DNA of 64,000 nt from Candidatus Poribacteria bacterium (lineage in GTDB: Bacteria > Poribacteria > WGA-4E > WGA-3G), in assembly GCA_963422705.1 (NCBI GenBank), contig OY730443.1, forward strand, positions 3,169,394 through 3,233,393. Direction: 5' to 3'. Below are positions 40,929-43,613 of this stretch, in pieces. The notes beneath the pieces were generated by a model. It worked only from the letters and a program-made list of their open reading frames with translations. It did no database searches and had not been told where the DNA came from. A program made the translations under genes and the position numbers. Position 1 is the first letter of the stretch, and every line of letters starts with the position of its first letter.

Positions 40929-43613
40929 CTATTCCTTAAGGCTGCTATAATAGAGCGCGTTGAATAACAACTTAAACGTTCCTACGGATTGCCCGCGGTG
41001 TTGGGGCTTGAATCCGAAAAGAATTACCCGTCCTTCCCCGATGCTGGTTTCCAATAGTGCGGCTTTCTGTCGGATACGTTTTTCGCCTTCTAGCCAACCA
41101 CTCATCAGTGGGTTGAACTCGGGATAGGTAGCAAGTTGTTTGGCGGCGCCCTGTCTCCCATCGAAGACGGGGCCGAATTTAAAAAAGATTGCGGTGTCCC
41201 TTTCAAGCCCATAGCCGATAGGGTGTCTCGTATCAATCCGGACGCGCAATAAGGAGCCGGGGCAGAAAAAGGTGTCTTCCTTTGAAGCATTTTTCTGTTC
41301 TACGACATTAACGATACCATTCTCGCTTAGCCCGAAGTATTTCATTGGCAATTCTGTTGCGCGATTTAGGCAGATTAGATTGCCGCCTTCCTCGATAAAC
41401 GTGCGCAAATTCGCGAGTCCCTCTATTCCGATTCCGCCGACATATTCGGGCGGTAATTTCCCGGGCGCGTGTCCATTGAGGATACCGTTTGCATCCATAT
41501 CGGGCAAAATGATGGCATCGTAGCGCGCCGCTAAATTTCCGGCGCGCATCTCGGCATTAGTAATTGTATGATAAGTAAAATTATGTGTTTCTAGCACCCA
41601 TCTCGTCCATCCTTCGTCGATGTTCGCCGTCCACGGTTTGTACAGCCCAAGGCGAGGCGGTAAAAGCTGCGTGAACCTTCGACTAAGGGGCGCATCATCC
41701 AGGGCGGCATAGGCGTACATGTGAATCCCGTATTCTTCGGCGAGTGCTTGCATCTCTTCCACTTGCTGTAAAGGCGGCACTCCTGTCCGAATTAGAATGG
41801 CCCCGGGGAGAAGTTTTTGATTTCCTTGAATCTCTATTTCGCGTTTGGCCCAATAGAGCCGGTAGGCGGGGTTCCCGTCTGCGCGCGTAGTACGCAATAA
41901 CTGGTTGAGTAACATTGTCTCTCTATTTGACCGGTTTTCAAAAAGGTAGCCAGTCGGTTCCGGAACAAGTTTCAGGCTTCCATGAATTGGGGGAAGTGAA
42001 TCGATTTTTGCCAAGTCAGCCTCAAACGGGTGCACCACGGGTACGGTTCTGACACCCATCTGCAAAGGGAGTGTCCAGCCGGCGATGTCGTACGGGCGTT
42101 CTAGCGGCGCATTTGGAGAAGGACGGCGGTCCGGGTATCTCTGAATTTCAAGCAAATCTTTGGCGTGCGCGCGAAAAGGTTGTGCCATCGAGATAACGTA
42201 AGTGCCTTCAGGATATTCCACCCCATCTGCCATAAAGTGTGATTTTGCCTGATGAATTATGACGCCCCCACGCTGAAGAATATTTAGCATCTTACGTGCG
42301 ATGTGTATGTCACGTTGACGCGTCGGTACCAGGAAGGCGCGCGGTGGTTCCTGCTGCCCTTTCTCTATTGCCTGTAGCCCCATTTTGTAAAAGTTAGTTT
42401 TCAGTGTTACTCGATGCTCGGCGGCGAAGGATAGGATTGAATGCGCTGCGGCGAGTTCATAGTTAACAATGTCTCTCAACCGCCACCATCCGCCTGGCCA
42501 CGGTTCAGGAAAGTTGGTGCGCACGGTATATTTATCAAGTCCTCGCCGGTATCCTCTCAGGGTTCCATGGGGTTGAAAAATCGGCGTCGCAATCTCCACG
42601 CGTGCTGCCTCAGTCAAAATGCCAACCATGTTGTGTCGATAGGGGGCTGTGCGAAATCCGCCATGCCACCAAGTATCATAGACGGCACTGGATAATACGC
42701 CCTTGAAGCCTTGTGTGGTTAAATCAAAAGCGAGTTGCGCGCCGATTAAGGACAAGGTTCGCTGCAAGAGCGGCGGGATGTTCGGATTAACCGGGTCAAA
42801 GTAAGGGGGAATTACAAACCGGGGGCCACGATAACTCATCTCATGAACATCGTAGACAATCTCGGGGAACCATTCTTGATATAGGACGCGTGTTAGGAGC
42901 TGCGTCTCAACCTGTGTCAACATAAACCAATCGCGGTTGTTATCATGTCCTGTATATTTCTGGTAGAGCTAAGGCAGCTCTGCGCCTTCATACGGGGTGC
43001 CGACGTTTCGGTTATACCAATCGACAACGATGTTTAACCCGTCCGGATTTGCGGACGGAATTAATAGAATTATGACGTTTTCAAGAATGGACAACATTTC
43101 AGGTGTCTCGGCGATGGCAAATTGATGTGTGAATTCCATCGCCATCTGCGAGGAGGCGAGCTCTGTTGAATGCAAGTTGCAGTTAATCAGCACGACGGTT
43201 TTCCCTTCTTGACTGAGCGCATTAAGTTCGTCTGATTCACCGTGTTTTGGCTTTGCCAATCGCTGCTGTATCGCTTGGTACCCGGCGCGATTTTTCAAGG
43301 TTTCCGGGGCAGAAATCAGCACCATAATAAAATCGTTCCCGTCTGTCGTCTTCCCAAGTTCCTCTACCTCTACCCGGGGTGAGTTGTCAGCAACGTGGCG
43401 CAGATAGGTAGAAACCGTCTGCCATCCTGCAACTTGATAATCCGAACCTACCTTAAAGCCGAGGGCCTCTTCAGGACTCATCAATTGTGCTGTGGCAGGT
43501 GAAATGGATATGCTCAACGAAAGTAGTAGCAAGCTCCACAGTCGCTGGTGTGGGATAGTATGCGTGAGAACCCGCGGCGGATATCTCCAATTCCTGTGGA
43601 TGATATTAAACAT
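40929..43613 (-). CDS. M14-family zinc carboxypeptidase, interrupted by an in-frame TAG at 42969..42971 (two ORFs 42969..43613 and 40929..42923)
   Basis: Signal peptide. Zinc ligands INCNLHSTE (HxxE) and SANPDG. Read-through of the TAG gives the conserved continuation [24 protein letters not shown]. Confidence 0.7.

Follow-up and report, generated by a model that had tools for sequence, protein, structure and literature searches.

Unitary nonsense pseudogenes are known in bacteria that show insertion-sequence (IS) expansion or host restriction (for example, Shigella, Mycobacterium leprae, and Sodalis). UAG codons can also be recoded, as with pyrrolysine, which occurs in the methylamine methyltransferases of some lineages and is not known from M14 peptidases. 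The locus compared here with such systems lies in a 64-kb window (the whole stretch of DNA that was analyzed) from a Candidatus Poribacteria bacterium. A preliminary description of this DNA had located an in-frame TAG inside a conserved M14 carboxypeptidase gene and had offered three explanations for it: a nonsense pseudogene, a sequencing error, or a site of programmed read-through. The first of these is preferred here. With a probability of about 0.82, the gene is a nonsense pseudogene of recent origin, at a locus where mobile elements had uncoupled the promoter. Such a history is one of ordinary recent gene loss, not recoding, and contains nothing new about TAG itself.

Translation of the minus-strand frame (43613->40929) yielded 895 codons with exactly one internal stop, the TAG at codon 215 (Table 1). 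This agrees with the preliminary description, in which two ORFs were said to share one frame with a TAG between them. The 15 codons that separate the TAG from the Met at 42923 are all open, and this restart Met (Met231) is located 16 codons past the stop. Both ORF pieces match contiguous stretches of one family of ~900-aa proteins (62-78% identity), and the match to the Pfam M14 model, PF00246 (63.4 bits against a cut-off of 21.6; E 3.4e-17; residues 69-229), spans the stop. The split-ORF arrangement is thus not a matter of chance, and the earlier assignment of the locus to a conserved M14 carboxypeptidase gene was upheld. The C-terminus of the window's M14 gene coincides with the C-termini of its orthologues, and the gene's own terminator is TAG.

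Table 1. Coordinates of features at the M14 locus (positions in the 64-kb window).
Feature	Coordinates	Strand	Remarks
Whole M14 metallopeptidase gene (probable pseudogene)	40929..43613	-	895 codons, one internal stop; signal peptide, M14 catalytic domain, and long C-terminal region with GATase1-like fold
C-terminal fragment ORF, 664 aa	40929..42923	-	Identical to P0005; start is an internal Met invariant in orthologues; without signal peptide and without HxxE motif
N-terminal fragment ORF, 214 aa	42969..43613	-	Signal peptide and first part of M14 domain, including HxxE zinc motif (H148, E151)
In-frame TAG, codon 215	42969..42971	-	Plus strand 'cta'; ancestral codon TGG (Trp); altered base 42970 (plus strand T, ancestral C)
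ATA at the ATG position of the two closest orthologues	43617..43619	-	Window ATG is two codons downstream
TnpB-only IS200/IS605-type element	~43739..45171	+	Antisense to M14; LE hairpin 43778-43818; RE ends ...GCTATCAC
Perfect 53-nt tandem duplication	44183..44288	+	Frameshifts tnpB; tnpB ORF without the duplication would be 378 aa
Probable native M14 promoter, TGGACA-17-TATACT	45175..45203	-	Now 1.56 kb from start codon; abuts RE of TnpB element; putative assignment
IsrB/IscB-like (RRXRR) element	45215..46770	+	Between two divergent promoters; ORF start 45575, broken by two short insertions; boundaries approximate
Conserved HEAT-gene promoter, TTGACA-17-TATCTT	46816..46844	+	Kept as in relatives
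HEAT-repeat gene	46937..48142	+	Conserved divergent neighbor; synteny anchor to orthologous loci

The read-through product was searched against a collection of 5.8 billion proteins, and 7,761 proteins were retrieved at E <= 1e-10. The best 120 of these were aligned for inspection of the stop column; 119 of them are full-length. The best full-length homologues comprise 850-936 aa and are 62-78% identical to the query over 95-100% of its length, and those that bear names are Candidatus Poribacteria proteins designated 'M14 family metallopeptidase'. This family of ~900-aa secreted M14 peptidases is universal in this Poribacteria clade; its members are annotated and uncharacterized. The only truncated protein among the matches listed was P0005, which is the window's own 664-aa fragment, encoded on a 4,001,648-bp contig; apart from it, no split homologue was present among the best 120 of the 7,761. 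In this same set, the stop column is occupied by Trp in 119 of the 119 full-length homologues and falls within an invariant block that contains PWLY. A check of the orthologous residue, which had been proposed in the preliminary description, thus returned Trp throughout, encoded by TGG in the two closest orthologues (L003 and L004). The codon contexts in these two are CCA TGG CTC and CCG TGG TTA, as opposed to CCT TAG CTC in the window. Because the orthologues carry TGG where the window carries TAG, the lesion is best read as a single G>A transition at the second codon position (plus-strand C>T at 42970). In the 5.8-billion-protein collection, the highest identity outside self-matches was 78%, and an intact allele of the window's M14 gene was not found; with the best match at only 78%, it follows that there is no assembled intact allele anywhere. 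Neither conspecific strains nor the remainder of this genome were detected when genome_contigs and JGI metagenome_contigs were scanned for exact occurrences of a 22-24-nt repeat.

A phmmer search of the PDB with the single sequence gave no match, and a family profile was needed for alignment with carboxypeptidase A4. In this profile alignment, NCNLHSTE...PSANPDG was paired with HSRE...PVANPDG of the zinc site of that enzyme. The HxxE zinc motif (H148-S-T-E151), which is invariant in the family and aligned with HSRE, lies upstream of the stop. Three further invariant segments, DNNRDW, DVHEM, and ILTEAAR, lie downstream of it; by analogy with M14 enzymes, these may hold the substrate-binding Asn-Arg, third zinc ligand, and catalytic Glu, respectively. 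The candidate third zinc ligand (H257 in DVHEM) and candidate catalytic Glu (E335 in ILTEAAR) are both invariant, and the profile-structure alignment ends at residue 180 of the profile. The AlphaFold model of an orthologue was of moderate quality (pLDDT 66.7), with residues 200-370 poorly modeled. When the model of the orthologue P0001 was submitted to Foldseek, carboxypeptidases T, A4, A, and B were matched by its N-terminal domain with probability 1.0 and E ~1e-6; the TM-scores were low, the model being multi-domain and of moderate quality. The C-terminal part of the P0001 model resembles GATase1-like domains (STM3548 and the GH42 trimerization domain).

The stop, at residue 215 of 894, falls inside the M14 catalytic domain. 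The 214-aa product should keep the signal peptide and the HxxE ligands and lose the rest of the active site along with the 560-aa C-terminal part; by the domain assignment, it would hold less than half of the catalytic domain. No Shine-Dalgarno sequence is visible before the Met of the 664-aa ORF, and this Met is an invariant internal residue in all homologues. Given an internal, conserved Met, no visible ribosome-binding site, and no signal peptide, an active enzyme would not be expected from the 664-aa ORF, and neither fragment is expected to be active.

Whether the TAG is present in the DNA itself bears on the sequencing- or assembly-error explanation, by which TGG would be the actual codon in an intact gene. 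A lone lesion in an otherwise perfectly conserved ORF is what such an error would look like, and several other disrupted genes and perfect tandem duplications in the window could cast doubt on the quality of the assembly. However, the Logan assembly of run ERR11641160 contains a 10,391-bp contig that is 100% identical to window positions 34929..43679 (8.75 kb), TAG included, and gene calling on this contig gave an identical pair of 214-aa and 664-aa products. For Logan contigs, k-mers from the raw reads are joined in a de Bruijn graph, and the assembler is not the one that produced the deposited genome; the TAG is therefore unlikely to be a polishing or consensus artifact, and a systematic error would be common to both assemblies if ERR11641160 were the data set of the deposited assembly. 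Within its Sanger Tree-of-Life batch, ERR11641160 stands a few numbers away from Illumina Hi-C and RNA accessions, and the PacBio accessions are numbered lower. Judged by these neighbors, ERR11641160 may comprise short-read data independent of the long-read assembly, and a second technology may thus stand against the error. In addition, the contig names of relatives and their megabase-sized circular contigs point to HiFi assemblies, in which substitution errors are rare, and no substitution is found among the window's other lesions, which consist of indels or duplications that affect mobile or restriction-modification genes. A sequencing error is accordingly unlikely, and this option of the preliminary description is disfavored, with identity between the two assemblies and no intact allele in the protein collection weighing against it.

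Programmed recoding, in which the TAG is decoded (by pyrrolysine, an amber suppressor tRNA, or stimulated read-through) and the full-length peptidase is made, would accord with an ORF that is fully intact and conserved past the stop. The base after the stop is C, and a C at this position is generally regarded as a weaker termination context. As in pyrrolysine (UAG) recoding and amber suppression, an in-frame TAG stands in a conserved enzyme gene; unlike in those systems, the window's stop is not conserved and replaces the invariant Trp, and TAG is a normal terminator. TAG was found at the site in none of the 119 full-length homologues (from the best 120 of 7,761), and it terminates 15 of the 45 ORFs of at least 150 aa in the window, this very M14 gene among them. 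The remark in the preliminary description that other genes in the window end in TAG, making global reassignment unlikely, was thereby confirmed; global reassignment was rejected on stop-codon usage and on the gene's own terminator. Regarding machinery, the 64-kb window holds no tRNA genes, no Rfam match was obtained anywhere in it, and 131 nt of the mRNA at the stop fold no better than shuffled sequences (z -0.24). Programmed recoding is highly improbable on this evidence, and the read-through option that had been proposed initially is disfavored. A similarly slight chance is given to a leaky or suppressed TAG, in which an amber-suppressor tRNA elsewhere in the 4-Mb chromosome, or efficient near-cognate read-through at UAG-C, would furnish a reduced amount of the full-length secreted peptidase. 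If that were true, the downstream ORF would have been kept intact by selection and would not merely be young; low-level near-cognate read-through of UAG is in itself possible. It is very unlikely that the gene is functionally split, with the 214-aa and 664-aa products both made (by re-initiation at Met231) and acting separately or together. Both ORFs are intact, they were separately called by gene callers on two assemblies, and the restart Met follows the stop closely. The cut, however, is made within a single catalytic domain, between HxxE and the invariant NR, His, and Glu positions. Further, the signal peptide is on the N-terminal piece and absent from the C-terminal one, which would consign them to different compartments; Met231 corresponds to a conserved internal residue of every homologue and has no Shine-Dalgarno sequence ahead of it; and none of the best 120 of the 7,761 homologues is split. 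The nonsense pseudogene is the option that held, having in its favor the invariant Trp, the single transition, and the position of the stop inside the catalytic domain.

The age of the lesion was estimated from the divergence of the read-through product, for which P0001, an equally isolated sister orthologue, served as the comparison. Outside the stop, the ORF has the look of a sequence under selection, with no sign of decay. At columns invariant in all other homologues, the window protein differs three times, in all cases conservatively (V323A, L858I, and I887L), and P0001 differs twice. At columns conserved at >=95%, the departures number 11 in the window protein vs. 9 in P0001; at 90%, they number 24 vs. 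23, and the BLOSUM scores are similar. Tajima relative-rate counts against P0001 varied by outgroup from 65:44 (P = 0.04) to 41:39 (not significant). About 4.3% of the possible single substitutions in the ORF create a stop, and a neutral copy would be expected to acquire its first nonsense codon after ~23 substitutions, i.e. 0.9% divergence. The presence of one lesion and no frameshift argues that inactivation was very recent, and the nonsense mutation appears to be very young. A long-standing pseudogene was considered and rejected: no further stop or frameshift is present, the sister departs from conserved columns as often, and the relative-rate test gives at most a marginal signal.

Both of the closest orthologous loci have the M14 gene divergent from a HEAT-repeat gene, with spacers of 254 and 340 bp. 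The promoters in the relatives' spacers are TTGACA-17-TATACT with an extended -10 for M14 and TTGAC(A/T)-17-TATCTT for the HEAT gene. In the window, 3,323 bp (43613 to 46937) separate the two genes, and a TnpB ORF and an RRXRR/IscB-like ORF occupy this interval. The site at 45203>45175 aligns with the M14 promoter of L004 (GACACATCG...TTATACTTT) in a short alignment whose score of 27 points was reached by 1 of 200 shuffles. From this short alignment and from consensus matching, the site is assigned, with moderate confidence, as the probable native M14 promoter. A -10 box at 43695-43700 was also considered as the native one and was rejected; its -35 box is absent, its spacing is wrong, and the site at 45203>45175 is the better candidate. 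On the minus strand between the TnpB element and the M14 ATG, no sigma-70-like site was found; a promoter of another type could be located in 43614-43738. Several terminator-like hairpins face a transcript from the old M14 promoter. The statement in the preliminary description that the TnpB element occupies the promoter region can be sharpened, as the element appears to separate the gene from its probable native -10 box. The IS LE had been placed about 125 bp upstream of the ATG, which agrees with the left end estimated here (~43735-43745). That the gene may be transcriptionally affected, as was also suggested, is supported in substance, and the IsrB-like element lies on the other side of the putative promoter. 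At the 5' end of the gene, the AGGA Shine-Dalgarno core is 13 nt from the window's ATG (vs. 7), and the displaced start codon may constitute a second, mild lesion.

The ends of the TnpB element were placed by comparison with a decayed copy (~26567-26996) and with the second TnpB (TnpB#2, 53300-54268). The RE is thereby fixed to within a few bases, and the LE boundary approximately (43735-43745). Both ends align with the decayed copy and TnpB#2, and the RE/omega-RNA-like tail is conserved among the three copies. The LE hairpin is strong (z -3.55), and no Rfam family matched the ends of the element. Domains detected in the TnpB ORF were OrfB_IS605 (PF01385, 3.2e-16) and TNB (PF07282, 1.2e-20), and the NCBIfam model guided_TnpB scored 162.5 bits against a cut-off of 100. 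Since tnpB is broken by a duplication and also carries a 24-nt insertion, the element is probably a dead copy. The exact products of the TnpB, IsrB-like, and Type ISP ORFs were not present in the assembly index, probably because the called start codons differ.

Other recent lesions were observed in the window. The second tnpB has a perfect 129-nt duplication at its 3' end, and a frameshift divides a Type ISP restriction-modification gene, which also contains a 69-nt x 3.7 repeat. A 24-27-nt sequence of the form 'GTAG + hairpin' occurs four times in the window (chance expectation, none), always inside TnpB or IsrB-like genes. The lesions in the window are mostly located in mobile or defense genes. 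Pfam searches of ORFs in the unannotated gaps of the window detected nothing but GCV_H, and a scan for further split genes, based crudely on neighboring open frames, gave too much noise to be of use. The lesions other than the TAG point to active small-scale rearrangement in this genome, and this fits gene inactivation that is real and not artifactual.

A history of the locus can be proposed from these arrangements. The TnpB element would have entered antisense to M14, at a point 3-4 bp downstream from the -10 box, and the IsrB-like element would have inserted between the two divergent promoters; together, the two would have stretched a divergent promoter region of 254-340 bp to 3.3 kb. These insertions may have uncoupled the M14 gene from its promoter. 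Selection on the gene would then have been relaxed, and a first disabling point mutation, TGG->TAG, could then have become established. Within the catalytic domain, translation would now end at residue 214. The loss of expression, the order of these events, and the fixation of the TAG in the population are presumed.

For annotation, the 214-aa ORF and the 664-aa ORF, which was deposited as a protein of its own, should be treated as one pseudogene. The locus may be regarded as a small example of gene loss in a symbiont-type genome, in which two RNA-guided-nuclease transposons entered a 300-bp divergent promoter region and a first point lesion in the uncoupled gene probably followed; its significance beyond annotation is little. 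The young lesion would render the locus usable as a marker for population-level studies, given reads or related strains.

The comparison with known systems extends to the enzyme, the mobile element, and the manner of gene loss. The gene resembles peptidase family M14 (carboxypeptidase A / carboxypeptidase T type) in its PF00246 match, in the alignment of HxxE with carboxypeptidase A4, and in the fold of its orthologue. Unlike the solved M14 enzymes, the window's family has ~900 aa, including the 560-aa C-terminal extension that is GATase1-like in the model, and is remote enough in sequence that phmmer finds none of them; the window's gene is, further, interrupted. The TnpB element is like the IS200/IS605-family TnpB (OMEGA) elements in promoter regions in having OrfB_IS605 and TNB domains, an LE hairpin, and a shared RE tail, and in adjoining a -10 box; unlike IS200/IS605 systems, it is without tnpA, and its tnpB is broken by the 53-nt duplication and carries the 24-nt insertion in frame. 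In contrast to the cases of Shigella, M. leprae, and Sodalis, the extent examined here was 64 kb, and the affiliation with Poribacteria is the one indication of a symbiotic lifestyle. The 4.0-Mb contig of the window's genome is the smallest among the megabase-scale contigs listed for its relatives. As in the pseudogenes of those three groups, a gene conserved and unbroken in every relative bears one disabling point mutation, accompanied by adjacent IS insertions and by other broken genes nearby (tnpB, isrB, and the Type ISP restriction enzyme).

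The nonsense change in the M14 peptidase pseudogene (C to T at 42970) completes an inverted repeat, in that the plus strand at 42963-42983 reads AGAGCT-aaggc-AGCTCT and its pairing is made perfect by the mutation; the ancestral C at 42970 would be opposite an A. This inverted repeat is absent from the M14 orthologues. The change is compatible with a quasipalindrome template-switch mutation, and a plain C>T transition would account for it equally well. Upstream of the same gene, the k-mer assembly (Logan) contig of run ERR11641160 terminates at 43679. This end point is 66 bp from the start codon of the M14 gene and falls about 60 bp short of the inferred left end of the neighboring IS200/IS605-type element (TnpB#1). 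Nothing in the spacers of the orthologous loci corresponds to the intervening segment, 43680-43738.

The coordinates of the elements and repeats are collected in the table below.

Mobile-element genes, derivatives and associated repeats in the window
Feature	Position	Strand	Remarks
Perfect 53-nt tandem duplication	44183-44288		inside tnpB#1; source of frameshift
TnpB#2 (second copy), gene and tail	53300-54488		322 aa
TnpB-element derivative	26567-26996		miniature, decayed
IsrB/IscB-like element	45215-46770		ORF 45575-46375, continuing to ~46640; RRXRR domain
Type ISP restriction-modification enzyme	55761-60829	-	split into two overlapping ORFs
GTAG + hairpin repeat AGCGTAGGGCGAAACCGCCGTTTCG, copy 1	44668-44691	+	
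GTAG + hairpin repeat, copy 2	46308-46331	+	
GTAG + hairpin repeat, copy 3	46485-46508	+	
GTAG + hairpin repeat, copy 4	53502-53525	-	

The frameshift in tnpB#1 is caused by its tandem duplication: when the duplicated 53 nt were removed and a separate 24-nt insert was retained, an intact ORF of 378 aa (43857..45043) was obtained. TnpB#2 is probably 5'-truncated, since its alignment to the family profile begins only at profile position 56. It also carries a perfect tandem duplication, of 129 nt (54230-54488), that spans the final 39 nt of the gene and the omega-RNA-like tail. The decayed derivative retains the left end, the first ~60 codons and the right-end/omega-RNA tail, the middle having been deleted, and is located directly upstream of a gene for a beta/gamma-crystallin-domain protein.

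The IsrB/IscB-like ORF scored 81 bits against the NCBIfam model guided_IscB, which is below the cut-off, with coverage of the N-terminal half only; the element has no HNH domain. Its RuvC-I motif is GVEPGSK, featuring a Glu at the position usually occupied by Asp. A strong hairpin at 45372-45395 lies in the presumed upstream omega-RNA region, and no Rfam match to the element was found.

Type ISP enzymes are, as a rule, single polypeptides. In the present locus, the Mrr nuclease, helicase, coupler and NPPW motif are found in an ORF of 1146 aa, and Type_ISP_C is found in one of 589 aa; the split results from a frameshift that falls within the methyltransferase part, at about 57450-57480. An in-frame tandem repeat (69 nt x 3.7) is located at 57098-57351. 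The split gene is either a pseudogene or a case of phase variation. The adjacent region, 60830-64000, contains no long ORF; on its minus strand, short open frames without Pfam matches are chained, with the frame shifting along the chain. The region may represent either a gene in decay or non-coding sequence. Elsewhere, 3.9 copies of a 264-nt repeat (29836-30852; 98% identical, in frame, 88-aa units) were observed within a 942-aa SPFH/flotillin-domain gene, with an older 66-nt periodicity beneath.

The 24-27-nt repeat AGCGTAGGGCGAAACCGCCGTTTCG, in which GTAG is followed by a short hairpin, occurs four times in the window (0 expected), and all four copies reside in RNA-guided-nuclease (OMEGA) genes. 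In TnpB#1, the copy constitutes the 24-nt in-frame insert ('ETAVSPYA' relative to TnpB#2); in TnpB#2, it is a 27-nt in-frame insert ('SVGRNRRFA' relative to TnpB#1). The two copies in the IsrB-like gene, 177 nt apart, each shift the frame, and a 344-aa ORF is regained if 22, 25 or 28 nt are removed at both. The exact sequence was not found in GTDB representative genomes or JGI metagenomes, and neither a RAYT nor a TnpA gene was observed within the window. In its architecture, the repeat resembles REP elements.
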